DNA from: a virus
Taxonomy: Duplodnaviria; Heunggongvirae; Uroviricota; Caudoviricetes
IMG/VR virus record: IMGVR_UViG_2737471839_000021
Location: 1 to 11,464 of that record
Reading direction: 5' to 3' (one strand)
Length of the DNA stretch: 11,464 bases
Below the pieces are notes generated by a model. That model was not told the origin of the DNA. It did not search any database and was given only the letters and a program-made list of their open reading frames with translations. Every line of letters starts with the position of its first letter. Position 1 is the first letter of the stretch. The position numbers and the translations under genes were made by a program. Below, in pieces: positions 1-11,464 of the stretch.

Positions 1-384
1 GCATACGAGATCGCAAAGGACTATTACGCTGGTGTGATGGCGAAAAAAGGCGTGGTATCAGGCGAAATTGACAATGATATCTGGAAACAGGCTGTTAACG
101 TAGCTACAGGTGGCGTGCATGACTATAACGGAATGGGGAATGTTCTTTTGCCGTGGGGAATGTCTGCAGAGCAATTCGATAAGCAGGTTAATCAGGCTTG
201 GAATGAACAAGTTGTCGGCACAGGGATAAAAACACCGCCTGGTCAGTATGGTTTGCAAAGTTACGGCGATAGTCAGTACCTGGTAAAACTTGGGACTGGA
301 TATCTGCTGAAGGATGATGGTTCTCCTGTTGTTCTTGATCTGACACAGAAGCGTCAGAGATTCTCCGGAGATATTCCGCAATGA
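1..384 (+). CDS. 3' fragment of a phage virion gene; the 5' end lies upstream of the window
   Basis: Frame 1 is open from base 1 to TGA at 382-384, so the listed 34..384 ORF is a 5'-truncated gene. Its stop overlaps the next start (ATGA at 381-384), typical of coupled phage structural operons. No recognisable motif. Confidence 0.5.
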   Translation, partial: AYEIAKDYYAGVMAKKGVVSGEIDNDIWKQAVNVATGGVHDYNGMGNVLLPWGMSAEQFDKQVNQAWNEQVVGTGIKTPPGQYGLQSYGDSQYLVKLGTGYLLKDDGSPVVLDLTQKRQRFSGDIPQ

Positions 385-2183
385 GTTACTTTGGCCTTAA
401 TCCAGTAAACCAGAATCAGCAGCTTGACGAAGCAGTATCAAATCCAGCTGGCTTTAACAGCGATGTTGGTTTTTTCGACAATGCTGTAGGAGCGGCATTG
501 TCTGGTTTGTACTCCGGGCTGGTGGCAAAGCCAGATCAGTTGCTATGGGCAGGGATGGATAAAATCGTATCCCCGATTGCTCAGTTTGTTAACGAAAACA
601 CCTCGCTCAATGACACTTCAGTTTCATACATTGCCGAGCAGAGAAAACTAGCAGAGCAGCAGGTTAAGCGGCTGACGCCTGATGCCGCGACAACCGGAAC
701 CGCAGGGCAGGTTCTTTATGGGTTGTTCGATATGGGCGGGCAGGCTGTTGTCGGTACAACGCTCGGTGGTCAGGTCGGAGGTGCGGCGGCGGTAACTTCG
801 CTACAGGGTTTTTCTGAGTTTGAACGGCTGACAGCACAGGGTGTTGATTTCAGGACAGCGCAGGAAGCGGGATTAGTGCAGGGCATTACTGCTGGTGCCG
901 GAACATTGATCCCTATGAGCCTCGGGTTACGTGCTGGTGGTGCGCTGGCGGAAGGTGTGGCGGCTCAGCTCGCGCGGACGGGTGAGAGTTCAGTGCGACG
1001 CGCCGCAGCAACAGCAGTACGTGCAACGCCAGATATTGCCTATGCCGCAGGTACAAATATTGCGTTCGGTATGGCACAGCGTGGGCTTACTGCAAAAACG
1101 CTTCGTGATGGTGGCTATAGCGAAATGGCTAACCAGTATGATGTGTTGGATCGACAGGCAATTGCTATTGATGCTGTTCTTGGGGTGGCGTTTGGTGGTG
1201 TTGGCAGATTTATTAACTCTCGCGGCGAGTCTACAAGCGCACCAAATTTTTCACCAGTTGATGTCGATGCTGCACTGGCGGCGAATGCCGCTCATCATGC
1301 TGAAATTGATATTGCTCCCGGCGTGCCGATCAACGTGCTTTCGCGCAATTCTCACATTCAGGCTCTGCGAAAAGCTATGTCTGATGTTAGCCAGGGGAGA
1401 CCTGTAGACGTTGCCAGCATTGTTGAGTCTGCATCTTTCAGTGAAATTCCAGGGCGCAAGAGTCTGCTGTCTCAGGCAGTTAATGAGGCTCTGTCATCTG
1501 TAGATGATGGAGTAACGGCGCGCGCTATAGAAAATCGGTTGCTTGAAGAACAGGCCGCGCAGCTTTTGCCGCGTGGCGATAGACAGGTTTACCAGTCTGA
1601 AATCGCTAATAGCCAACGAATTATTGAAAATCTCACTGAACAGCGCGCACAAATTCTTGCAGAAGAGCCAACAGGTAGCGGTAAAGCTTTGTCTCGTGCT
1701 CGATCAGATAAACAGGTCAGACTTCACGATATTGACCAACGAATCCGGCAGGCACAAGAACGCCTGGAATTTTCCCGTAACGCGTTGGCACCGCATGAGC
1801 CTGGCGGTCAGTTTTTTGAAGCTCGAGCAGAACTGGCACGGCGACAGCAGGCTGAAAGTGAACTTAATGCTCAGGCTGTTTCATTCTATAAAACAGCAGA
1901 GGTAAGTACGCCAGACGAAGTAGCTCCTTTTGAGCCCGGTAAGATATTGCAACAGGCAGAACAAAAGATGATGGCAGATCCGGCAGGAGATATTGATCTG
2001 CGCATAGCTGAAGATTCGCTGCTTGAATCACCGGACATGATAATAACCGTGCTGGATGATGATGGTAATCCACAATCGCGCAGCGCGCGTGAAGTGCTGG
2101 ATGAAGCGAACAGGGAAAGTGAGCAGGCAATACACGATTCCAGCCTGTTTGATGTCGCTGTGGCGTGTTTCTTGAGAGGTTAA
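381..2183 (+). CDS. Putative internal virion / ejection protein (600 aa)
   Basis: Long ORF in operon position just upstream of the tailspike. Gly/Ala/Thr-rich low-complexity N-terminal third, charged helical C-terminal half, no catalytic motif seen. Start overlaps upstream stop. Functional label rests on position and composition only. Confidence 0.55.
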   Translation: MSYFGLNPVNQNQQLDEAVSNPAGFNSDVGFFDNAVGAALSGLYSGLVAKPDQLLWAGMDKIVSPIAQFVNENTSLNDTSVSYIAEQRKLAEQQVKRLTPDAATTGTAGQVLYGLFDMGGQAVVGTTLGGQVGGAAAVTSLQGFSEFERLTAQGVDFRTAQEAGLVQGITAGAGTLIPMSLGLRAGGALAEGVAAQLARTGESSVRRAAATAVRATPDIAYAAGTNIAFGMAQRGLTAKTLRDGGYSEMANQYDVLDRQAIAIDAVLGVAFGGVGRFINSRGESTSAPNFSPVDVDAALAANAAHHAEIDIAPGVPINVLSRNSHIQALRKAMSDVSQGRPVDVASIVESASFSEIPGRKSLLSQAVNEALSSVDDGVTARAIENRLLEEQAAQLLPRGDRQVYQSEIANSQRIIENLTEQRAQILAEEPTGSGKALSRARSDKQVRLHDIDQRIRQAQERLEFSRNALAPHEPGGQFFEARAELARRQQAESELNAQAVSFYKTAEVSTPDEVAPFEPGKILQQAEQKMMADPAGDIDLRIAEDSLLESPDMIITVLDDDGNPQSRSAREVLDEANRESEQAIHDSSLFDVAVACFLRG

Positions 2184-2188
2184 ATTAA

Positions 2189-4663
2189 ATGAGACAGGAA
2201 TGTATACAAGCGGTCCAGCAGGCGGCGCAGCGCACGTTAACGGCGCGAGAAATACAGAACATTGAAGACCGCATTTATCGAAATATGCGCTCCATTGCTC
2301 GTGATGACCCGATGTCGTGGCGACAACTTTCCGAATCAGAACGGTTGTATCGTGCAGCACAATTGGCATCTGAAGAATTACAGCGAGAAGCGGCATTAAA
2401 GAAACGTCGTGTGGCCCTCACTATAGCCGCACGTCAGAGATTGGATAAATTTATCAATAGCTATCAAGGGGCTGATGGGAAACTTGGCGCTCTTAACCGT
2501 ACTATTGCTTTTAATGCAGACGGTAAATCGAATTTCCTCTCTGTTGAATCCAGAACAAAAGCCACCCGTGATTATGCATTGAGTCGATTGCAGGAGGCAT
2601 TCGAAGCAGTTGATCCTCGCTTTTTTGGTCTGTTTGAAGATGAAGCGGGCGTACGTGACCTGGTATATGAAATGCGGGGGCAAAATACTGGCAATGCTAA
2701 AGCAAGAAAAGGTGCTAAGGCGTGGAGAGAAGTTACAGAGCTGCTGCGCCGCCGGTTTAATGATGCTGGTGGGGACATTGGCTATCTCGAAAACTGGGGG
2801 ATCCCTCAACATCATTCTATGGAAAAGGTTGGGGCGGTATCAAAAGATAAATGGGTTAGCGATATTATAGGTAAGCTGGATCGCAAATATTATACCCGAG
2901 CCGATGGACAACTGATGAACGATGCCGAGTTGTCTGCATTTCTTGGAGAGGCTTATAACACGATCGCTACTGGTGGGCTGAATAAGCTTACTGATACCGG
3001 AATGCGAATTTCCGGCGCACGTGCTAACCGTGGTAATGCATCACGACAGATACATTTCAAAGATGCAGATTCCTATCTCCAATATCAACAACTTTATGGC
3101 GATCGCTCTCTATGGGAAATCATGGTCGGTCACCTGGAAGGTATCAGTAAAGATATTGCTCTGGTGGAAACATATGGTCCAAACCCCGATCATGTTTTCC
3201 GCTCCCTTCTTGATCAGGTTAAGGCAGAAACGGCAACAGCTAACCCGAGTAAAACCGGTAAAGTCGAGCGGCTGGCGAACAACACAGAGAATCTGTACAA
3301 CTTTATTTCCGGAAAGACACAGCCTGTAGCGAATCCGCACATCGCGCGATGGTCTGACAATATCCGCAACTGGCTGGTTGCCAGCAGACTCGGATCCGCG
3401 TTGCTGTCATCGTTCTCTGATCTTGGAACCATGTATCTGTCTGCGAAGGTTACCAACCTTCCAATGAACCAGTTATTCCGCAACCAACTTGAAGCTATGG
3501 ACCCAACGAACCGTACAGAACTTGCGCGGGCGCGCCGCGCTGGTCTGGCGATGGAATCTCTACTTGGCAGCGTTAACCGATGGGCGATGGATAATATGGG
3601 GCCGTCAGTGTCTCGTTGGGCGGCGACGGCGGTAATGCGTGCCAGTGGGCTTACAGCATGGTCAGATGCGCACAAGCGCGCCTATGGCGTAACCATGATG
3701 GGAAGCCTGGGAGAAGTAGTGTCACGGACACCAGACCTTCGTAGCCTCGATGACTCTGATTTTCGTATCCTGAAAAGCAAAGGGATTACTGACACAGACT
3801 GGAGCGTATGGAAGTTGGCGCAACAGGAGGACTGGGGGAACGGTAATAATACGATGCTGACACCAGAAAGCATTATGCGTATCCCTGATTCAGCAGTTAA
3901 ACATCTTGGTGAGCCTGAACGCGTGAAATTTGAGGCAATGCGTAAACTGCTCGGTGCCGTAACTGAAGAAGTTGATATGGCTGTTATTACACCGGGAGCA
4001 CGTGAGAAACTGATAACCGGTTCTGGTATTCAGCGTGGAACATGGAAAGGTGAATTAACGAGAAGTGTTTTCCTGTTTAAATCGTTCCCTATCTCGGTTG
4101 TTATGCGTCACTGGTCACGCGCTATGGGTATGCCGTCTGCTGGTGGGCGTGCGGCATATATTGCGACGTTTATTGCCAGTACGACCATTCTTGGCGCTTT
4201 GTCGCAGCAACTTAACGACCTTGCGTCGGGTCGTAATCCTCGAGAGATGACAGGAGAAGATGCCGCAAAATTCTGGCTTGGTGCTCTACTGAAAGGTGGT
4301 GGTCTTGGCCTTTACGGTGACTTTTTATTGTCAGATCACACTAGGTACGGAAGCGGCGCGCTGGCGTCGATGCTTGGCCCGGTAGCTGGTCTGGTTGATG
4401 ACGTAGTGAAGATTGCTCAGGGCATACCGTTAAATGCTGTGGAAGGGAAGAGTGAGCAGACTGGTGGTGATCTGGTGAAGCTGGGGAAAGGTTTGATGCC
4501 AGGTGCGAATCTCTGGTACTTGAAGGCGGCTCTCGATCACATGATCTTTAACCAGATGCAGGAGTATTTTTCACCAGGCTATTTGCGTAAAATGGAGCAA
4601 CGTTCGAAGAAAGAGTTTAACCAGACATACTGGTGGCGACCTCAGGATGTCACTCCGCAATAA
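2189..4663 (+). CDS. Putative large internal virion / ejection protein (824 aa)
   Basis: Starts 6 nt after the previous stop with GAGAGG about 9 nt upstream. Uninterrupted 2.4 kb ORF with a Gly-rich hydrophobic C-terminal segment (GGGLGLYGDFLL...GPVAGLVDDV). Size and position fit the large core/ejection protein of podoviruses; no sequence search was possible. Confidence 0.55.
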   Translation: MRQECIQAVQQAAQRTLTAREIQNIEDRIYRNMRSIARDDPMSWRQLSESERLYRAAQLASEELQREAALKKRRVALTIAARQRLDKFINSYQGADGKLGALNRTIAFNADGKSNFLSVESRTKATRDYALSRLQEAFEAVDPRFFGLFEDEAGVRDLVYEMRGQNTGNAKARKGAKAWREVTELLRRRFNDAGGDIGYLENWGIPQHHSMEKVGAVSKDKWVSDIIGKLDRKYYTRADGQLMNDAELSAFLGEAYNTIATGGLNKLTDTGMRISGARANRGNASRQIHFKDADSYLQYQQLYGDRSLWEIMVGHLEGISKDIALVETYGPNPDHVFRSLLDQVKAETATANPSKTGKVERLANNTENLYNFISGKTQPVANPHIARWSDNIRNWLVASRLGSALLSSFSDLGTMYLSAKVTNLPMNQLFRNQLEAMDPTNRTELARARRAGLAMESLLGSVNRWAMDNMGPSVSRWAATAVMRASGLTAWSDAHKRAYGVTMMGSLGEVVSRTPDLRSLDDSDFRILKSKGITDTDWSVWKLAQQEDWGNGNNTMLTPESIMRIPDSAVKHLGEPERVKFEAMRKLLGAVTEEVDMAVITPGAREKLITGSGIQRGTWKGELTRSVFLFKSFPISVVMRHWSRAMGMPSAGGRAAYIATFIASTTILGALSQQLNDLASGRNPREMTGEDAAKFWLGALLKGGGLGLYGDFLLSDHTRYGSGALASMLGPVAGLVDDVVKIAQGIPLNAVEGKSEQTGGDLVKLGKGLMPGANLWYLKAALDHMIFNQMQEYFSPGYLRKMEQRSKKEFNQTYWWRPQDVTPQ

Positions 4664-4672
4664 GGAAGTGTT

Positions 4673-4846
4673 GTGTTTTTAATTATTTTGAGTGTGATAA
4701 TTTCTGGTGGATTGTTATTTATTGACCGCTACAAATATTTTCTTAACCCTCAGACTCAAGCTATTTGCTGGTTCATCTTTGTTGTGCAGGGAGTAGTTCT
4801 TGTTGCAAGCCTTATTGAGGGGAGGCCTCTTATTTTTACTGGGTAA
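4673..4846 (+). CDS. Possible small two-TM membrane peptide (about 57 aa), GTG start, absent from the ATG-based ORF track
   Basis: Frame-2 ORF open from 4664 to TAA 4844-4846. AAGGAAG (4662-4668) lies just upstream of GTG 4673; alternative starts TTG 4688 and GTG 4694. Translation ...LIILSVIISGGLLFIDRYKYFLNPQTQAICWFIFVVQGVVLVASLIEGRPLIFTG has two hydrophobic helices. It fills an otherwise empty 195-bp gap and ends 12 nt before the next gene. Non-ATG start keeps confidence low. Confidence 0.3.
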   Translation: MFLIILSVIISGGLLFIDRYKYFLNPQTQAICWFIFVVQGVVLVASLIEGRPLIFTG

Positions 4847-4858
4847 ATAGGTGACTAC

Positions 4859-5155
4859 ATGCAAGCTATAGGATTCATTGTTTATATCGTCGTTGGTCTT
4901 TTTCAGTTGGCAGCAATTATGGCTGGGCTTGAATCATGGTGGGGATTGCACTGGATAATTGCAGCCCCCATTGCTTTCATCGTGAGCTATATTCCATTTG
5001 TTGGAGCGATTGTTGGTATGGTTGGCGCTGTGGATGTATGGCGGTGGGAGTGGTGGCAGGCTGGCCTTCTCTTCTTTGGTGGGATCATCTTTGCTATTGT
5101 CTGCGGTGGAATGTCATCATTTTTCGAATGGCTATCATTCAGAAAAGGGACGTGA
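4859..5155 (+). CDS. Small Trp-rich integral membrane protein (98 aa, about 3 TM helices), unknown function
   Basis: ATG at 4859 preceded by AGGTGA. Three long hydrophobic segments (IGFIVYIVVGLFQLAAIMAGL, WIIAAPIAFIVSYIPFVGAIVGMVGAV, AGLLFFGGIIFAIVCGG) with Trp clusters at the segment borders. Followed directly by an intrinsic terminator. Confidence 0.6.
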   Translation: MQAIGFIVYIVVGLFQLAAIMAGLESWWGLHWIIAAPIAFIVSYIPFVGAIVGMVGAVDVWRWEWWQAGLLFFGGIIFAIVCGGMSSFFEWLSFRKGT

Positions 5156-5190
5156 CATGTCACAGGCCGCTTTCGCGGCCTTTTCTTTAT
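5152..5190. terminator. Bidirectional intrinsic terminator between convergent genes
   Basis: Perfect 12-bp palindrome GTGACATGTCAC (5152-5163) overlaps the TGA of the membrane-protein gene. It is followed by a GC hairpin AGGCCGC-tttc-GCGGCCT (5164-5181) and a T-run (5182-5188). On the minus strand the same hairpins are followed by TTTTCT. Confidence 0.55.
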
Positions 5191-5444
5191 GTGGTTTGTT
5201 TTCGTAATTGTTCGGCACAATAGTCGAGATGTGTTTGCAGATCCTGCATAGACATCTGTGAGCTGGTGACGTAGTTAATCAGTGCAGTCAGTTCGGCAAG
5301 TGGGCCATCGACATTAAATCCATCCTTATCGAGATCCCGGAGTAATTTCATCAAGTGCGATCCCTCCACCAGTGATCTGACGCCTCCCGGCGTGTGAATC
5401 CTTTCGGTAAATCCGTCTTCCAGTGGATAGTGATACTGCTGCAT
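5187..5444 (-). CDS. Small soluble acidic protein (85 aa) of unknown function with a LexA box in its promoter; candidate SOS-inducible antirepressor or effector
   Basis: Minus-strand ORF. The track begins at a TTG (5462), but the first ATG (5444) is preceded by GGAGAAG with about 8-nt spacing, so 5444 is taken as start. Product MQQYHYPLEDGFTERIHTPGG...DYCAEQLRKQTT has no TM segment. LexA box lies 20 bp upstream. Confidence 0.6.
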   Translation of the reverse strand: MQQYHYPLEDGFTERIHTPGGVRSLVEGSHLMKLLRDLDKDGFNVDGPLAELTALINYVTSSQMSMQDLQTHLDYCAEQLRKQTT

Positions 5445-5463
5445 CTTATCTTCTCCATGCAAT

Positions 5464-5483
5464 AACTGTATATTTATACAGTA
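5464..5483. promoter_or_regulatory. LexA (SOS) operator, near-consensus
   Basis: AACTGTATATTTATACAGTA: CTGT-N8-ACAG with an AT-rich spacer, matching the E. coli LexA consensus TACTG(TA)5CAGTA; the core ACTGTATA..TATACAGT is a perfect palindrome. Sits 20-40 bp upstream of the minus-strand start at 5444, overlapping the expected promoter. Confidence 0.65.
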
Positions 5484-5639
5484 TCAAATAATTTGTTTGC
5501 TATCCAGCACGTTTTGCAAATCACCTGAAAGGTAATATCTGTTCGTATTTATGGGTTGTCTATCCATATGTGGTTTTTCAGGTAATAGAATAACCGGATA
5601 TGCGGCGCAACGGGTGCTGCGACTATCTGGAGATTTAAC

Positions 5640-8279
5640 ATGACGGTCTCAACCGAAGTTAACCACAACGAATACACAGGTAATGGTGTTACGACCACAT
5701 TCCCTTACACCTTTAGGGTTTTCAATAAATCTGATCTGGTGGTGCAGGTTATTGACCTTGAAGAAAATATCGCTGTGCTGGCTCCTGATACTGATTACAC
5801 CGTTACCGGGGCTGGAGGATATAACGGCGGTAATGTAATTCTGTCGAAGGCACTGGCTAACGGTTATCAGATTTCTATATCGCGAGAACTGAAGGTTACT
5901 CAGGAAACAGATCTGAGAAACCAGGGTAAGTTTTTTGCTGAGGTGCATGAAGACGCGTTCGATAAGCTGACTATGCTGATTCAGCAGGTGCGCAGTTTGT
6001 TTTCTCTGGCCCTTCGTAAGCCGTCGTTTGTGGCTAACTATTATGATGCTCTGAACAACTATATTAGAAATCTTCGCGATCCCATACGCCAACAGGATGC
6101 GGCTACAAAGAACTATGTGGATATGCTTGCTGAAAATAATATAAACAAAACACTGCGTGTTCCTGAGGGTTTTATACCATCACTTCCACCTGTATCTCAG
6201 CGAAAAAACAAAATTGTAGCTATGAACGATAATGGCGTTCCAATTATGGTATTGCCGGAAAGCGGTTCTGCTGCGGATGTGCTTATAGAGTTAGCTAAAT
6301 CCAATGGCACAAATAATATAAACGGAACAAAACACGTTCTTGGAGCTGAAGCAAGAAATCTTACTGACATGTTGTCTGACGAGATATCAGTTCGTGATTT
6401 TGGTGGTAATGATGATTACGATGGAACAAATTCTGATTCATGCACAAATAACCTGATTGCTTTTCAAAAATATTTTGAATACCTGAACTCTATTGGTGGT
6501 GGGAATTTAAATATACCAAAGACAAACACAGGCAAGTATTATATTAGTGGTGATGATCATACGCATGTGTCAAGTGATATTATGATATGTGCTGATAATG
6601 ATGTTTCTATTCATCTAAATTTTTCTGGTGGGTCATCAAACACTCCATTTGCTAACCTTGACCTGAAAGCATTACGTCAAATAAAAATAGAGTATGTTAA
6701 TTTTGGTTACAATTCATATGTTGGTGGGAGAGTCGATGTTCCGTTAGGTGACTTACTGCAAACCATGAATAATGGTAGCGGTGTCTACTCAATTCCAGAA
6801 TCTCTATCAGGAGATAATTTTTTCGTTATCGCACTGGGTAACAACACCACATCAATACCTCCGATATCATCAAGTGCAGATTCTATTTTATTTAATGGTT
6901 CAGGTGTTCCAACAGCGGCCACGATAAGCGCAATGCCTGGCGATGAAATTATGTCAATGGTTAGCGCACCGGTAACAGGAGGTATCCTTGCTGGTGTTGT
7001 GACGGCCGGTGGTTATGCGTTTGTATCTCAAGATACATCAACCGGAGATGTTGTTATTGCAGAAGGTACAACTGGTCAGCCAAATATACTTAACGGATTG
7101 AATTACGCTCTGATGGACCAATTGCGCGATAGATTTGACATGGCGCTGCTATCAGTAAAAGTTACTTCATCAAGAACTTTTACTGTAATGGCGAATGGTT
7201 TGGCAGTCGCAAGCCACACGACACGCTCGACAATTCTTGGTGTCTGTTTTGGTGCTAAAGATATTAACAATACAATCAGTGTTTCTCAGATGTCGCGTGT
7301 AAGGGGGAATAGCTTTTCTGGATCAAAACCATTAAAAATATTGGTATGCGGGGATTCTATTACTGATCAAAATAACCAGTATTCATGGGCCAAATATCTC
7401 CAGATGCAGTTGGGATCAGCTGGGATTAACATTGCTGAAATTAAAAATCTGGCAGTTGCTGGCCATACGGCAGCACAGCAATTAAGCATATTGCAGACAG
7501 TAGGCGTTGGTTATGATCTGTGCTTAATTCAGGTCGGAGTTAATGATGTTCAGATGCAAACTCCTGTTTTTAGTTTTATGTCAACAATAAGTCAAATGGT
7601 TACTTATTCTAAAAGCATTGGCGCATTTCCTATTGTTGGTGTACCAACGGCTTTTTATTCTCTTGCCGAAGCGAATGCTAACGGTCAAAGAGGAGGCCAG
7701 AATACATCAAACAATAATCTTATAGGTTTGTATCGTTCTTTGCTTATACGAGCTGTGGCATCGGCTGGTGGGATTGTTAATCTTGAACCTATGAAAGGAC
7801 ATGGGGCGATGACAGCGAAGTGGCTATCGATTGATCCGTATGCTGTTAGTGACAGCATTGTATTAGATAACATTCACCCAACACCATACGGTTCAATGCT
7901 ACTTGCGCAGGGATTCTCGCGCAGCATTATTGGTTGGCTTACTCGCCCTGATTTAACAGCAACAGAAAGTTTTGAATCAATCCCTACTCAGTGGTTAAGT
8001 CCCGGTTTTGGTACGACGTCGCTACCTAAAATCAAAGGAAGAACATTATCTGGTTTAATTAGTTTACATGAAACAAACATAAATGATGGCTCATTAGCAT
8101 TTACTCTGCCTCCTGCAATAAAACTTGATCAGCCAAGAATGCTAAGCGTTATTGGTGTTGGAGACAATGATCTCCCGGTTGGTCCATGCAGCATGTATAT
8201 AGGCACTGACGGAAAATGCTATTTTTTTAACCTTGCAGCAGGAACGAAGAAAATCTCACTTGATGGAGTTGAGATTTAG
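5640..8279 (+). CDS. Tailspike / tail fibre (879 aa): T7 gp17-like N-terminal anchor, beta-helix signature, SGNH/GDSL esterase domain
   Basis: ATG 5640 with GGAG upstream. Residues about 10-150 follow the T7 gp17 N-terminal tail-attachment pattern (YTGNG..FPYTF, TDYTV, EVHEDAFDKL). Around residue 250, SVRDFGGNDDYDGTNSD resembles the (V)xDFGAxGDGxTDD opening of beta-helix tailspikes. SGNH blocks: GDSIT (Ser 573, nt 7356-7358), GVND (res 633-636), DNIH (Asp 743/His 746, nt 7866-7877). Confidence 0.85.
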   Translation: MTVSTEVNHNEYTGNGVTTTFPYTFRVFNKSDLVVQVIDLEENIAVLAPDTDYTVTGAGGYNGGNVILSKALANGYQISISRELKVTQETDLRNQGKFFAEVHEDAFDKLTMLIQQVRSLFSLALRKPSFVANYYDALNNYIRNLRDPIRQQDAATKNYVDMLAENNINKTLRVPEGFIPSLPPVSQRKNKIVAMNDNGVPIMVLPESGSAADVLIELAKSNGTNNINGTKHVLGAEARNLTDMLSDEISVRDFGGNDDYDGTNSDSCTNNLIAFQKYFEYLNSIGGGNLNIPKTNTGKYYISGDDHTHVSSDIMICADNDVSIHLNFSGGSSNTPFANLDLKALRQIKIEYVNFGYNSYVGGRVDVPLGDLLQTMNNGSGVYSIPESLSGDNFFVIALGNNTTSIPPISSSADSILFNGSGVPTAATISAMPGDEIMSMVSAPVTGGILAGVVTAGGYAFVSQDTSTGDVVIAEGTTGQPNILNGLNYALMDQLRDRFDMALLSVKVTSSRTFTVMANGLAVASHTTRSTILGVCFGAKDINNTISVSQMSRVRGNSFSGSKPLKILVCGDSITDQNNQYSWAKYLQMQLGSAGINIAEIKNLAVAGHTAAQQLSILQTVGVGYDLCLIQVGVNDVQMQTPVFSFMSTISQMVTYSKSIGAFPIVGVPTAFYSLAEANANGQRGGQNTSNNNLIGLYRSLLIRAVASAGGIVNLEPMKGHGAMTAKWLSIDPYAVSDSIVLDNIHPTPYGSMLLAQGFSRSIIGWLTRPDLTATESFESIPTQWLSPGFGTTSLPKIKGRTLSGLISLHETNINDGSLAFTLPPAIKLDQPRMLSVIGVGDNDLPVGPCSMYIGTDGKCYFFNLAAGTKKISLDGVEI

Positions 8280-8378
8280 AGTGTCAAATCAATAGTAATT
8301 ATTATCCGTAAATGGTTTATTGTGTATGATGAGTTCACCAATAAGTGAGTTCATCATGCACGTTAAACGGTGGTTTTT

Positions 8379-8783
8379 ATGTCAGTTCAGCTAACCAGTG
8401 AGTCTTTAAATCAGTGGCTTAGTGCGGGTTCTCTTGCTGCGGTGATAGCAGGTGTTCCTCCAGAGGTGGCTTTGGGAGCTTTGGCTGGGGCGGTAATTTT
8501 TGTTACCTCAGCTATCGAGTATCCCATTCATCGTCGGGTTCTCCTGTCTATGCTCAGCTTCCTCTGCGGCCTTCTCTTTTACAAACCTACAGCATCCATC
8601 CTTATCGGTGTAGCCAGCCTGATCCCTACCATCACGCAGGACTCTTTCGAGAAAGGGATCGTCTTCTCTGCTGGCGCATTTGTGTCGTCAATTGTCGCCG
8701 TGCGTATTGGTATATGGCTCTATCACCGTTCCGATAATCCACGCGAGTTAATTCCGGGGAGAAAAGACGATGGTAACGCATGA
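8379..8783 (+). CDS. Holin-like membrane protein (134 aa from ATG 8379; GTG 8370 is an alternative start)
   Basis: First gene of the lysis cassette. Three to four hydrophobic helices and a charged C-terminal tail ([18 protein letters not shown]). Track start is GTG 8370 (M-V-F-M...), first ATG 8379 with GGTGG upstream. Overlaps the next gene by 14 nt. Confidence 0.55.
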   Translation: MSVQLTSESLNQWLSAGSLAAVIAGVPPEVALGALAGAVIFVTSAIEYPIHRRVLLSMLSFLCGLLFYKPTASILIGVASLIPTITQDSFEKGIVFSAGAFVSSIVAVRIGIWLYHRSDNPRELIPGRKDDGNA

Positions 8784-9078
8784 GCTTTTTTTACTTATCA
8801 CCAATGCGGTTATTTGCACTGGTATAGCCGTTCGAGTTGTCACATTTCGGCGAAACGGTTCTCAACACAGGCGATGGGGTGGGTGGCTGGCTTATTTCCT
8901 GATTGTTGCTGCGGCCAGCATTCCAGTTCGTGTCGCTTATGCAATCTGGTTACGCACACCAATGGTTGTGGATTTATCTGAGGTCATTATCAACGCTGTC
9001 ATGCTTGCTGCAGTCATTAAAACGCGCGGTAACGTAGTTCAGATTTTCAAAATAACGAGGTCTAAACATGGAGATTAA
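8770..9078 (+). CDS. Second holin-like / antiholin membrane protein (102 aa)
   Basis: Three hydrophobic segments with a basic C-terminus ([19 protein letters not shown]). Overlaps the upstream holin-like gene and the downstream endolysin start, so it is translationally coupled within the lysis cassette. Confidence 0.55.
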
Positions 9079-9697
9079 ACAATTCCAGCGAGCTGCTGGT
9101 ATCAGCGAGGCGCTGGCTGCACGCTGGTTCTCGCATATTAATTATGCGATGAAAGAATTTGGTATCAGCAAACCAGAAGATCTGGCAATGTTTATTGCTC
9201 AGGTCGGGCATGAGTCTGTTGGCTTCACCAGATTGCAGGAGAATTTCAACTACAGTGTCAGTGGACTGGCTAACTTCGTTCGGGCTGGGCGTCTCACTCA
9301 GGGGCAGGCTAATGCACTGGGTCGCCGTGCTGGTGAACCACCATTGCCACTCGAGCGCCAGCGAGCGATCGCCAATCTGGTGTACAGCAAACGCATGGGG
9401 AACAATGCCCCTGGTGATGGCTGGAATTACCGGGGACGCGGACTTATCCAGATTACCGGTTTGAATAACTATCGTGATTGCGGAAACGGTCTGAAGGTTG
9501 ACCTGCTGGAGAGCCCTGAACTGCTGGCGCAGGACGAATATGCGGCTCGTAGCGCGGCGTGGTTCTTCGCCAGCAAAGGATGCATGAAGTATACCGGAGA
9601 TATTGCACGTGTAACTCTGATTATCAATGGCGGTAGGAATGGCATCGACGACAGGCGCGCGCGGTACATCACTGCCAGTAAGGTGCTGGTGGTATGA
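9068..9697 (+). CDS. Endolysin, glycoside hydrolase family 19 (chitinase-like) type
   Basis: 209 aa; ATG 9068 preceded by GAGG. Carries [12 protein letters not shown]...QENFNYS with two closely spaced Glu (GH19 catalytic pair arrangement) and GRGLIQITG. No signal peptide or TM, consistent with holin-dependent release. Stop overlaps the Rz start (ATGA at 9694-9697). Confidence 0.85.
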
Positions 9698-10176
9698 TCT
9701 GGGCATTCGTAAAAGCATACTGGAAACAGTTGGTTATCATGGCGATGCTTGCTGTTCTGGTTATATCAGGAGTTGTAGCCTGGAATGCACACGGCAGTCG
9801 TCAGTACGACGCCGGGTATGCGCAGGCGAAAGAAGACTGCAAAGCCGAAGAAGAAAAAGTTCGTCAGCACCACGAACAGGAGAAAGCGACCAATGAACGT
9901 GAAGCGCAGCAGAGGATCGAACAGGCGCGCAGTGATGCTCTTGATGCTGCCGCTCGCGCTGGCAGGTTGCAGCAACAGCTCGTTGCCATCCGTGAGCAGC
10001 TCAGGCAGTATAACGCCATTGTCGGCGCTGGGTCGTCAGCCGCAGATACCGGAGTTTTGCTTGCCGACGTGTTCAGCAAATCTCTCGAGAGAAATAGACA
10101 ACTGGCAGAGTATGCTGACCGGGCAGCCGAAGCCGGAAGAGTCTGCGAAAAACAGTACGACACCATGACCAGATAG
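9694..10176 (+). CDS. Rz: Rz-type inner-membrane spanin (i-spanin), 160 aa
   Basis: N-terminal TM anchor ([21 protein letters not shown]) followed by a charged, coiled-coil-prone periplasmic domain. Immediately downstream of the endolysin and contains an embedded +1-frame lipoprotein ORF. Confidence 0.8.
9893..10168 (+). CDS. Rz1: Rz1-type outer-membrane lipoprotein spanin (o-spanin), embedded in Rz in the +1 frame
   Basis: Within track ORF 9785..10168, Met at 9893 begins [28 protein letters not shown]...: basic n-region, hydrophobic core, lipobox LAGC, then a Pro/Ser-rich short mature peptide. Start could alternatively be Met 9935. Entirely inside Rz. Confidence 0.7.
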   Translation: MNVKRSRGSNRRAVMLLMLPLALAGCSNSSLPSVSSSGSITPLSALGRQPQIPEFCLPTCSANLSREIDNWQSMLTGQPKPEESAKNSTTP

Positions 10177-10325
10177 CATGGCATTTTTCATGGTACTGAT
10201 TTTTGGTGACGGTATATAAAACGGTATGGTGAAAATCATGTTGCAGAAAGTTGTTGTCAGTCAATTGGTTATGTATTTCGTAAATAATTGAGTGGGAATG
10301 ATTTGACCCTGCACTATGAATGAAC

Positions 10326-10356
10326 AAAACCCTCTGTTACTACAGAGGGTTTTTTA
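10326..10356. terminator. Intrinsic terminator downstream of the lysis cassette, probably bidirectional
   Basis: AAAACCCTCTGT-tact-ACAGAGGGTTTTTT: 10-12 bp GC-containing stem, 4-nt loop, T6 tract on the + strand. On the minus strand the same stem is followed by TTTT, downstream of the convergent gene ending at 10394. Confidence 0.65.
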
Positions 10357-10393
10357 TCTTCAAGAATTATAGGATTGAAGTTACTAACATCGA

Positions 10394-10933
10394 TTAATTA
10401 AACCAGCTGTCCGATTTGTTCTCTTCTGCTTTGCCCACGCTTTTCATCAGATCGCGACCGCCTTCAGTCATATTTCTGTTGGCGTCAGCTTCAGATTGCA
10501 CCACATCGGTTTGCGCAGCTTTGTGCTTCAGTTCCTGATCGATAAATTCGTTTTCTCGCTTAACGCGGGCTTCTTCTTTCGCCAGCGCCAGTTTTTGTTT
10601 CTGAATCTCTAAGCTGCGTAGCTCATCTTCATAACTTTGATCGCGTTTTTTGTCCGCAGAGGCTTCGGCGTCCAGTTTATCCTGACGAGCTTTCTTATTT
10701 GCCGCTGCCGTTGCCGCTCTTTTGTTAGCGGCGGCCTGGGCATTTGCGCGACGTTGCTTCTCTTGCTGGATTTCCCTGTTGCGCTCCGCGACCCATTCGT
10801 CATGCTGCCTTTGCTCTTCATTTTTACCTTGCTGTTCCGCTTCTGCGACAGCAGAGAGTTGATCCTGCAATGATGAGGCGATAGCCGGATAGCTTAAGGA
10901 GGCTAAGATGGCGCAAAGAAAAACTTTCTTCAT
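10394..10933 (-). CDS. Secreted, highly charged (K/E/R/A/Q-rich) probable coiled-coil periplasmic protein (179 aa)
   Basis: N-terminal signal peptide MKKVFLCAILASLSYPAIA with an AxA cleavage site, then low-complexity charged helical sequence. RBS AGGAGGAG upstream on the minus strand. No enzymatic motif. Confidence 0.6.
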   Translation of the reverse strand: MKKVFLCAILASLSYPAIASSLQDQLSAVAEAEQQGKNEEQRQHDEWVAERNREIQQEKQRRANAQAAANKRAATAAANKKARQDKLDAEASADKKRDQSYEDELRSLEIQKQKLALAKEEARVKRENEFIDQELKHKAAQTDVVQSEADANRNMTEGGRDLMKSVGKAEENKSDSWFN

Positions 10934-10948
10934 GACTCCTCCTGATTA

Positions 10949-11464
10949 TTAGCTCTTTTCAGGACATTTGGTATTTGGCTGAATACGCGTTTCGTTATAC
11001 GTCGTGGTAATAACAACGGCTAAACCTGTCGTAAACTGGCACTCTTTACCCACCTGGGTAGAGGTATACACTTTGGTGCCTTCCTTATAGGTTAAAGAAA
11101 CACCTTCCACTAAGGTTTTATCATTCACCATAGAACCCGCTGCCGCGCCTACAGCTCCGCCGCCAACTGCACCTGCCGTCGTTCCGGAATTGCTGCCAGA
11201 CCCGACGTTGTGGCCGATAACACCGCCAGCGACTGCGCCAATAAGCGCGCCGAAGGCTTGTGCGTTCCGTTTATTTTGGGAGTTGTCTACGGCAACTTTT
11301 GCGGGAAGAATGGAAATAATATTAACGGTTTTAGTTTCTTGTTTGGTATTCAGTTGATCGGTTTGATAAACATCGGCAGCATGATCGTCAGCATTTGACT
11401 GGCATCCTGCCAGAGTGAATGACGCTAACATTGCCACAGGCAGAAGACATTTTTTAAATTTCAT
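10949..11464 (-). CDS. Outer-membrane lipoprotein with glycine-zipper domain (SlyB / 17-kDa-antigen-like), 171 aa
   Basis: Start ATG is the last 3 nt of the window (11462-11464). Lipoprotein signal MKFKKCLLPVAMLASFTLAGCQ with lipobox LAGC. Central GALIGAVAGGVIGHNVGSGSNSGTTAGAVGGGAVGAAAG is a glycine-zipper motif as in SlyB-family lipoproteins. Runs 15 nt upstream of the secreted-protein gene on the same strand, a likely two-gene operon. Confidence 0.7.
   Translation of the reverse strand: MKFKKCLLPVAMLASFTLAGCQSNADDHAADVYQTDQLNTKQETKTVNIISILPAKVAVDNSQNKRNAQAFGALIGAVAGGVIGHNVGSGSNSGTTAGAVGGGAVGAAAGSMVNDKTLVEGVSLTYKEGTKVYTSTQVGKECQFTTGLAVVITTTYNETRIQPNTKCPEKS

Follow-up and report, generated by a model that had tools for sequence, protein, structure and literature searches.

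A mosaic tailspike with an AT-rich SGNH-domain cassette found in Escherichia coli O109 hosts

The window analysed here is the whole of an 11,464-nucleotide (nt) stretch of caudoviral DNA (IMG/VR record IMGVR_UViG_2737471839_000021, positions 1 to 11,464), and our subject is the tailspike gene near its middle. By megablast against a comparison set of 50,697 phage records, positions 1-10303 are the late region of an epsilon15/phiV10-like podovirus of the genus Uetakevirus, with virion genes 94-98% identical to those of HEMP4, phiv142-3, phiV10 and PAS61 and gaps mid-region. The tailspike open reading frame (ORF) occupies the position of epsilon15 gp20 and the phiV10 tail fibre gene, after an opposite-strand gp19-like gene and before the holin, endolysin and Rz genes. 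Its product is 99% identical at the amino acid (aa) level to a cluster of 121 proteins (P0001), and RefSeq labels the counterpart in seven E. coli prophages an SGNH/GDSL hydrolase family protein. An earlier note, made from the letters alone, had remarked on an abrupt turn to AT-rich sequence inside this gene and read it as a receptor-binding module recently grafted from a lower-GC donor onto a conserved anchor, with a switch of host range. The gene and its three segments are as follows, where GC is guanine plus cytosine and GC3 its fraction at third codon positions:

5640-8279, plus strand: tailspike gene, 879 aa, an intact ORF (ORF list and translation)
5640-6125, plus strand: N-terminal particle-binding anchor, aa 1-162; GC3 ~0.47; 70-86% nt identity to Uetakevirus tailspikes
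6126-6311, plus strand: neck or linker, aa 163-224; GC3 0.28; conserved as protein, diverged as DNA
6312-8279, plus strand: exchangeable, putatively receptor-binding esterase cassette, aa 225-879; 40% GC, GC3 0.29

Composition and anatomy of the tailspike gene

The anchor part of the gene (5640-6098) has 44.9% GC, with values at the first, second and third codon positions (GC1, GC2 and GC3) of 0.54, 0.34 and 0.46, and the distal part (6099-8279) has 40.1% GC, with values of 0.48, 0.43 and 0.29. The remainder of the window is 48.8% GC. The shift is almost wholly at third codon positions, that is, at synonymous sites. Could it reflect only amino acid composition, such as beta domains rich in Asn, Ile or Lys, or else chance? 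By eye, Asn, Ser, Gly and Ile abound in the distal protein, and GC1 does slip. However, GC2 rises as GC3 falls, so amino acid composition is not the cause of the shift. Maximum likelihood places the GC3 change point at nt 6126 (support at two units of log-likelihood ratio, 6024-6171; permutation p = 0.0005), and the step falls where DNA similarity ends in hundreds of prophages, which makes this explanation very improbable.

The step is also abrupt, as the earlier note had it at about 6100: GC3 in 50-codon windows between 5940 and 6239 runs 0.54, 0.38, 0.28, a drop within ~150 nt, and anchor and distal parts differ by Fisher's test (p = 5.5e-5). The two AT runs quoted at the time lie at 6135-6150 and 6461-6480. 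Codons ending in A or T make up 71% of the distal part versus 54% in the window's other phage genes (p = 9e-17), and 53% of the anchor, the same as in those genes (p = 0.87); GC3 and codon endings alike contradict uniform usage across the gene. In codon endings the first ~450 nt do resemble the other phage genes, but total GC is ~5 points lower in the anchor than in the upstream virion genes (45% vs 50%). Low GC does last to the tailspike stop codon, with the holin gene back at 50%, but the low-GC block is wider than the tailspike tip: of all single segments in the window, 4541-8410 (41.4% GC) is the best low-GC one, and it takes in a variable region upstream of the tailspike. The most AT-rich part is the region of the first cassette domain, 6357-6719 (GC3 0.16-0.30 in 50-codon windows). 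An index modelled on the codon adaptation index, calculated against the other phage genes of the window, did not split anchor from tip (0.78 vs 0.74, both inside the reference range); it is uninformative because codon bias in the prophage is too weak, and GC3 is the informative measure.

Separate searches of the anchor and distal parts against the phage records returned different lineages. The anchor matched 46 records at 70-86% nt identity, namely E. coli and Salmonella Uetakevirus tailspikes (phiV10, PAS61, epsilon15, SPN1S and TL-2011b among them) and Enterobacter, Klebsiella and Pseudomonas phages; identity is 72.9-85.8% where most or all of 5640-6100 aligns, and the other records align over only the first ~347 nt at ~70%. 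The distal ~2.2 kb had no DNA match in the same set except 104 nt in the neck (6201-6304), 82.7% identical to a GDSL esterase gene of Klebsiella phage vB_KpnP_BUCT711, which indicates that the neck is common to several genera and to different esterase spikes. The two parts therefore do not match one lineage at one identity. By tblastn, the best relatives of aa 225-879 among these records are in Aeromonas phages, at 30% identity. A phmmer search of the Protein Data Bank (PDB) matched aa 1-165 to a tail-fibre N-terminus (28lx/8ck1, E=1.9e-27) and aa 135-233 to an Acinetobacter KN1 capsule depolymerase (9m4c, E=1.8e-8); matches were confined to anchor and neck, with none for the esterase part, for which a fold search was needed. 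Local BLAST against phiV10, PAS61, phiv142-3, TL-2011b, SPN1S and epsilon15 gives the following patchwork:

1-4666 (to 5189 for some): 98% nt identity to E. coli members
5187 to ~6125, gp19-like gene and anchor: 85-89% nt identity to relatives
6126-6311, neck: 45-77% nt identity to relatives
6312-8279: no similarity to relatives
8284-8312 onward: 86-92% nt identity to relatives

At the protein level, alignment with epsilon15 gp20 and phiV10 gp25 is nearly collinear to aa ~225, and hundreds of prophage tailspikes that bear unrelated tips share 70-83% identity with aa 1-223. The neck retains ~70-76% aa identity to many such tailspikes, but only the 45-77% nt identity listed above. Conversely, proteins that share the tip but not the anchor begin to align at aa 217-225 (BLASTP). 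In a survey of 5426 complete E. coli genomes, the anchor was present in 562, where it bears unrelated distal domains whose annotations read GH28-related, endosialidase, beta-helix, S74 tail-fibre or other SGNH. DNA similarity to these prophages ends in three classes, at ~5985, ~6116-6132 and ~6280-6308, the second of which coincides with the GC3 change point. The boundary is thus not a single one but layered, with the break in DNA similarity and GC3 at ~6120-6130 and the boundary common to other anchor types at ~6312-6318.

The SGNH cassette, its carriers and serogroup O109

An AlphaFold2 model built from a 44-sequence alignment (mean predicted local distance difference test score, pLDDT, of 76) is of high confidence over aa 250-360 and 384-879, and divides the cassette into four domains:

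6357-6719, plus strand: first cassette domain, mixed alpha/beta, aa 240-360; AlphaFold2, pLDDT ~85-92 over aa 250-330
6789-7307, plus strand: beta-sandwich preceding the esterase domain, aa 384-556; AlphaFold2, all-beta, pLDDT ~90
7332-7949, plus strand: SGNH/GDSL esterase domain, aa 565-770; predicted catalytic residues Ser573, Gly608, Asn635, Asp743 and His746
7356-7358 and 7875-7877: codons of catalytic Ser573 and His746
8028-8276, plus strand: C-terminal beta domain, aa 797-879; AlphaFold2, pLDDT ~90

Two Pfam families cover aa 567-757 above their cut-offs, PF13472 (44.1 bits, cut-off 32.9) and PF00657 (30.6 bits, cut-off 23.6), and the domain takes the alpha/beta/alpha flavodoxin-like fold of SGNH proteins. 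Every one of the 30 homologues spanning this region has the SGNH blocks GDS573, G608, GVN635D and D743xxH746 unchanged. Among the top Foldseek matches are two-domain SGNH-containing structures, 2o14 (YxiM) and 2waa (CE2). These features suggest esterase activity. As the RefSeq labels indicate, the domain is already known to automatic annotation, and the tailspike is a mosaic of an ordinary type.

The same cassette occurs on unrelated anchors. In Proteus (P0003) it is 80% identical in aa, and 78.9% in nt from nt 6318, behind a PF18668 N-terminus; the gene follows tail-tip genes (DUF1833, NlpC/P60 and an 822-aa protein), and we therefore take the prophage to be siphovirus-type. An E. coli copy (P0004, a cluster of 41 members; 75% aa, and 72.3% nt from nt 6318) is also on a PF18668 anchor; its prophage is siphovirus-type and has a tape-measure gene ahead of the spike. 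The siphovirus-type copies lose DNA similarity to the window at 8113-8129. Another homologue (P0021) has the cassette at 47% aa identity on the T7-tail anchor PF03906, and one from Enterobacter ludwigii (P0005) is on a Uetakevirus anchor and 62% identical in aa over its full length. Two metagenome bins with the same lysis cassette hold copies at ~85% nt identity. When the cassette protein was scanned against a collection of one genome per species, no relative was confirmed. One anchor therefore bears unrelated cassettes and one cassette sits on unrelated anchors, with breaks in similarity and composition at the junction. In this respect the exchanged module on a conserved anchor that the earlier note proposed is borne out, with the same tip on PF18668 and T7-type anchors and the anchor/tip swaps seen across the 562 genomes.

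The cassette is itself a mosaic. In the prophage of HCM-28C-2 (L004), which also has different upstream virion genes, the tailspike gene is 98-100% identical to that of the window in 100-nt windows except for a patch at ~6780-7450, where identity falls to 60-74%. This patch, which takes in the beta-sandwich and the first part of the SGNH domain, points to recombination inside the gene, within the cassette. A smaller patch (7300-7500, 93-96% identical) is seen in AMSHJX01.

A second, unrelated SGNH tailspike type occurs in the TCM3e1 prophage (L015, 3941-6601) on the same anchor and neck, with its SGNH domain immediately after the neck (aa 273-491).

The hosts of the cassette are narrowly defined. 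It is carried by nine complete E. coli genomes, seven with it on the Uetakevirus anchor and two as an orphan copy. We queried all 5426 genomes with the wzx-wzy segment of the O-antigen cluster of strain OkiPb01676, which has O109-family wzx and wzy; only 18 have the O109 cluster, and all nine carriers are among them. The probability of such an overlap by chance is ~4e-24, or ~2e-13 if only five carriers are independent. Three carrier strains have been typed as O109:H16 or O109:H10 (PMC12613899). Panda, cattle, chicken, pork and deer from three countries are the sources of the carriers. Within O109 the cassette lies in three distinct genetic backgrounds, so mere clonal descent does not explain the link. 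For relatives that bear different modules, the recorded hosts are O157, O146 and O103. A change of specificity, as claimed earlier, is thus supported by the distribution, and the cassette most likely sets specificity for serogroup O109, with the O109 O-antigen as the probable receptor. In the O109 cluster of OkiPb01676, a 177-aa protein annotated as a serine O-acetyltransferase adjoins gnd.

As an observation in its own right, that cluster (L020, 26668-40594) is 34.1% GC with a GC3 of 0.27, close to the 0.29 of the cassette; the adjacent his genes have a GC3 of 0.63.

Might the SGNH domain do something else, by acting on another polymer (capsule, colanic acid or enterobacterial common antigen) or a lipid, by serving as a transferase, or by being non-catalytic, with the flanking beta domains recognising O109? 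The invariance of the Ser-Gly-Asn-Asp-His set across 30 homologues and the esterase identity of the best structural matches speak against this, as does the acetyl esterase activity reported for characterised tailspike SGNH domains (G7C gp63.1 and Klebsiella receptor-binding proteins; PMC13123978). Given also that the strict O109 association points to the O-antigen, we consider such a role unlikely.

What, then, does the AT-richness mean? Across nine related tailspikes measured, anchor GC3 is 0.45-0.56, and tip GC3 is 0.26-0.40 in phiV10, PAS61, epsilon15, TL-2011b, SPN1S, phiv142-3, EC361 and the Enterobacter homologue. The neck is also AT-rich in most related tailspikes. The cassette is AT-rich in hosts of 38-55% GC, as a comparison of its GC3 with that of surrounding genes illustrates:

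Window: cassette 0.29 (0.287); window's other phage genes 0.44-0.50
Metagenome-bin copy (L017): cassette 0.32; adjacent endolysin 0.63
Proteus: cassette 0.34 (0.336); Proteus genes ~0.30
E. coli siphovirus type: cassette 0.35; neighbouring tail genes 0.52-0.58
Enterobacter: cassette 0.37; host or neighbouring genes 0.65-0.75

These values bear on the remaining part of the earlier interpretation, in which the distal part was recently gained from a phage of a lower-GC host, for example a member of the Morganellaceae such as Proteus, and is still unameliorated after a recent host-range switch. The step in the window is sharp, and the Proteus prophage has a copy of the cassette (80% aa, 78.9% nt) whose GC3 matches that of its host genes and shows no step within the gene. 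However, no near-identical low-GC donor copy was found in the data searched; beyond the E. coli group of 99% identity, the closest copies reach ~85% nt identity in the two metagenome bins, 79% in Proteus and 72% in the siphovirus-type prophage of E. coli. The Proteus copy is less AT-rich than that of the window, and the tips of phiV10, PAS61, epsilon15, TL-2011b, SPN1S, phiv142-3 and EC361, which have unrelated folds, are equally AT-rich. Furthermore, at least three O109 prophage backgrounds and the internal recombination patches imply long residence in E. coli. A recent acquisition of this kind is therefore unlikely, and AT-richness does not establish a lower-GC donor, given cassette GC3 values of 0.29-0.37 in E. 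coli, Enterobacter and Proteus alike. Since cassette GC3 is low whatever the host, it marks a mobile segment and neither dates the event nor names the donor.

The neighbourhood of the tailspike gene

Around the tailspike gene, the window encodes:

4859-5155: small ORF, phrog_3075
5187-5444, minus strand: small epsilon15 gp19-like gene, phrog_450
8370-10176, plus strand: lysis cassette of two holin-family genes, a GH19 endolysin and an Rz-like gene (Pfam)
10394-10933, minus strand: yfgI (DUF5384), chromosomal (Pfam and RefSeq-annotated equivalents)
10949-11464, minus strand: yfgH (glycine-zipper lipoprotein), chromosomal (Pfam and RefSeq-annotated equivalents)

Phage similarity stops at ~10303 and yfgI and yfgH follow, so the window is the right end of a prophage and spans the prophage-chromosome junction; RefSeq annotates an equivalent arrangement beside yfgI/yfgH in E. 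coli AMSHJX01 and others. Upstream of the tailspike, the gp19-like gene and the anchor form one moderately diverged block, 85-89% identical in nt to phiV10, PAS61 and TL-2011b from 5151/5187 to ~6125-6295. Total GC is low (39-47%) already over 4541-5640, from the end of an 824-aa virion gene through the ORFs at 4859-5155 and 5187-5444. Compared with the otherwise 98-99% identical AMSHJX01 prophage, the window lacks ~1.97 kb at 5187-5189, which in AMSHJX01 encodes a small membrane protein, a DUF4760 protein and an antirepressor. A terminator-like hairpin at 5164-5181 directly precedes the site of this absence, and relatives hold other accessory genes (Bro-N, YafO toxin, Arc/Ant) at the same spot, ~5155-5190. 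A scan for promoters and terminators around the tailspike gene found nothing above shuffled expectation.

Downstream, the gap between the tailspike stop codon and the first holin-family gene is just 90 nt (8280-8369) and holds no O-antigen modification gene. Genes for such modification (oac, wzy plus an inhibitor, or gtr) follow the tailspike in phiV10, PAS61, epsilon15, SPN1S and TL-2011b. They are likewise lacking in the esterase prophage of Enterobacter, the SGNH prophage of TCM3e1 and the EC361 prophage. The absence is not a peculiarity of esterase spikes, as the EC361 tip is non-SGNH.

A different arrangement surrounds the E. coli siphovirus-type copy (L011, 8001-13547), where a 359-aa protein with no Pfam match and an MBOAT O-acyltransferase are encoded on the opposite strand after the spike, followed by an integrase. 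The genes for the 359-aa protein and the MBOAT enzyme are both AT-rich. An orphan, N-terminally shortened copy of the spike, 359-aa and MBOAT trio lies beside IS1 near fdhD in two O109 strains (L002, 7614-12291). One possible role for the trio is conversion, as a module that goes with a deacetylating spike. More tentatively, the MBOAT pair hints at a paired system in which the prophage would supply, as an immunity function, the acetyl groups that the virion strips.

Interpretation and comparison with known systems

So, what kind of tailspike is this? Taking the evidence as a whole, the best explanation, to which we assign a probability of roughly three in four, is a three-layer mosaic tailspike of an epsilon15/phiV10-like prophage that bears a circulating O109 esterase cassette. 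The anchor (aa 1-162), which has the codon composition of the rest of the phage, would join the spike to the tail, and is followed by the neck (aa 163-224), conserved as protein. The cassette (aa 225-879), with its alpha/beta domain, beta-sandwich, SGNH esterase and C-terminal beta domain, would recognise the receptor and move among unrelated prophage types through recombination at the neck and anchor. AT-rich third positions may then be a property of a circulating pool of neck-plus-tip segments. The spike is predicted to recognise the O109 O-antigen and strip its O-acetyl groups by means of a Ser573/His746/Asp743 triad, leaving the chain uncut. Deacetylation as in gp63.1 of phage G7C (PDB 4QNL), an O-antigen deacetylase, would allow the virion to progress to the outer membrane.

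Several points weigh against this explanation. The AlphaFold2 model is of a monomer and has low confidence at aa 86-179. The TCM3e1 tip, with a GC3 of 0.54, is the sole one among ten tailspikes examined that is not AT-rich, so AT-richness is usual and not universal. The Proteus copy matches its host's composition and is thus compositionally at home there, which leaves room for an ancient low-GC origin. Some O109 lysogens are probably clonal (OkiPb01676/OkiPb01690 and 22-245/22-250), so there were fewer than nine independent events. A literature search gave no confirmation of O-acetyl groups on the O109 O-antigen, and a review of E. coli O-antigens has no O109 structure in the text or supplements examined. 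G7C gp63.1 is only 14% identical to the window spike, with the structural match limited to the SGNH domain; neither a 4QNL match at E<=1 (PDB phmmer) nor a G7C-like phage at E<=1e-3 (tblastn) was found.

More tentatively, the cassette might represent an uncharacterised family of O109-specific O-antigen deacetylase modules, absent from cultured phages (best match 30% aa), although we would doubt this sooner than assert it. On that reading, the similar GC3 of cassette and O109 cluster would suggest a common low-GC gene pool across Enterobacterales, or alternatively a common selective or mutational regime for tips and O-antigen loci. The main interest lies in the clean O109 association. O109 includes Shiga-toxin-producing cattle isolates, and the receptor assignment is testable and makes the spike a candidate O109-specific binding or typing reagent. 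The gene is also a worked example of tailspike assembly, with nested recombination points at anchor and neck and a tip cassette common to podovirus-like and siphovirus-like prophages of several genera. For genome scanning it carries a caution: AT-rich tips are normal in Uetakevirus-type tailspikes, and are therefore unusable as evidence of recent transfer or of a low-GC donor.

The closest known systems are the Uetakevirus tailspikes themselves (epsilon15 gp20, phiV10 gp25 and PAS61), which share with the window spike its genome position, a homologous anchor and neck, a modular logic and the drop in GC3 after the anchor. Unlike these, the window spike has 655 distal aa that are unrelated (BLASTP against epsilon15 gp20 gives E ~1, with no DNA match). 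The Uetakevirus spikes bear beta-helix or other domains for other O-antigens (hosts O157 and O146), and most of these relatives have an O-antigen-modifying gene after the tailspike, which the window prophage lacks. The title of a 2026 preprint ascribes a protruding esterase domain to gp20; Pfam finds only a beta-helix in epsilon15 gp20.

G7C gp63.1 resembles the window spike in having an SGNH domain in a virion tailspike. Its N-terminal attachment and flanking domains are unlike those described here, and G7C is a lytic N4-like phage, whereas the window holds a temperate epsilon15-like prophage. SGNH domains are among the commonest enzymatic domains of Klebsiella prophage receptor-binding proteins, two of which were shown to be active acetyl esterases in a study that cites G7C gp63.1 as the O-antigen deacetylase precedent (PLoS Biol 2026, PMC13123978). 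These Klebsiella proteins are likewise from temperate phages and track the host polysaccharide type, but they are associated with the capsule (K-locus), whereas the window spike is tied to E. coli O-antigen type O109. Finally, in the two-domain carbohydrate esterases YxiM (2o14), CE2 (2waa/2wao) and Ape1, an SGNH catalytic domain comes after a beta domain, the same order as in the window spike. None of these is a virion protein; all are bacterial enzymes, soluble or secreted, and at 11-17% identity the likeness to the window spike is one of fold only.

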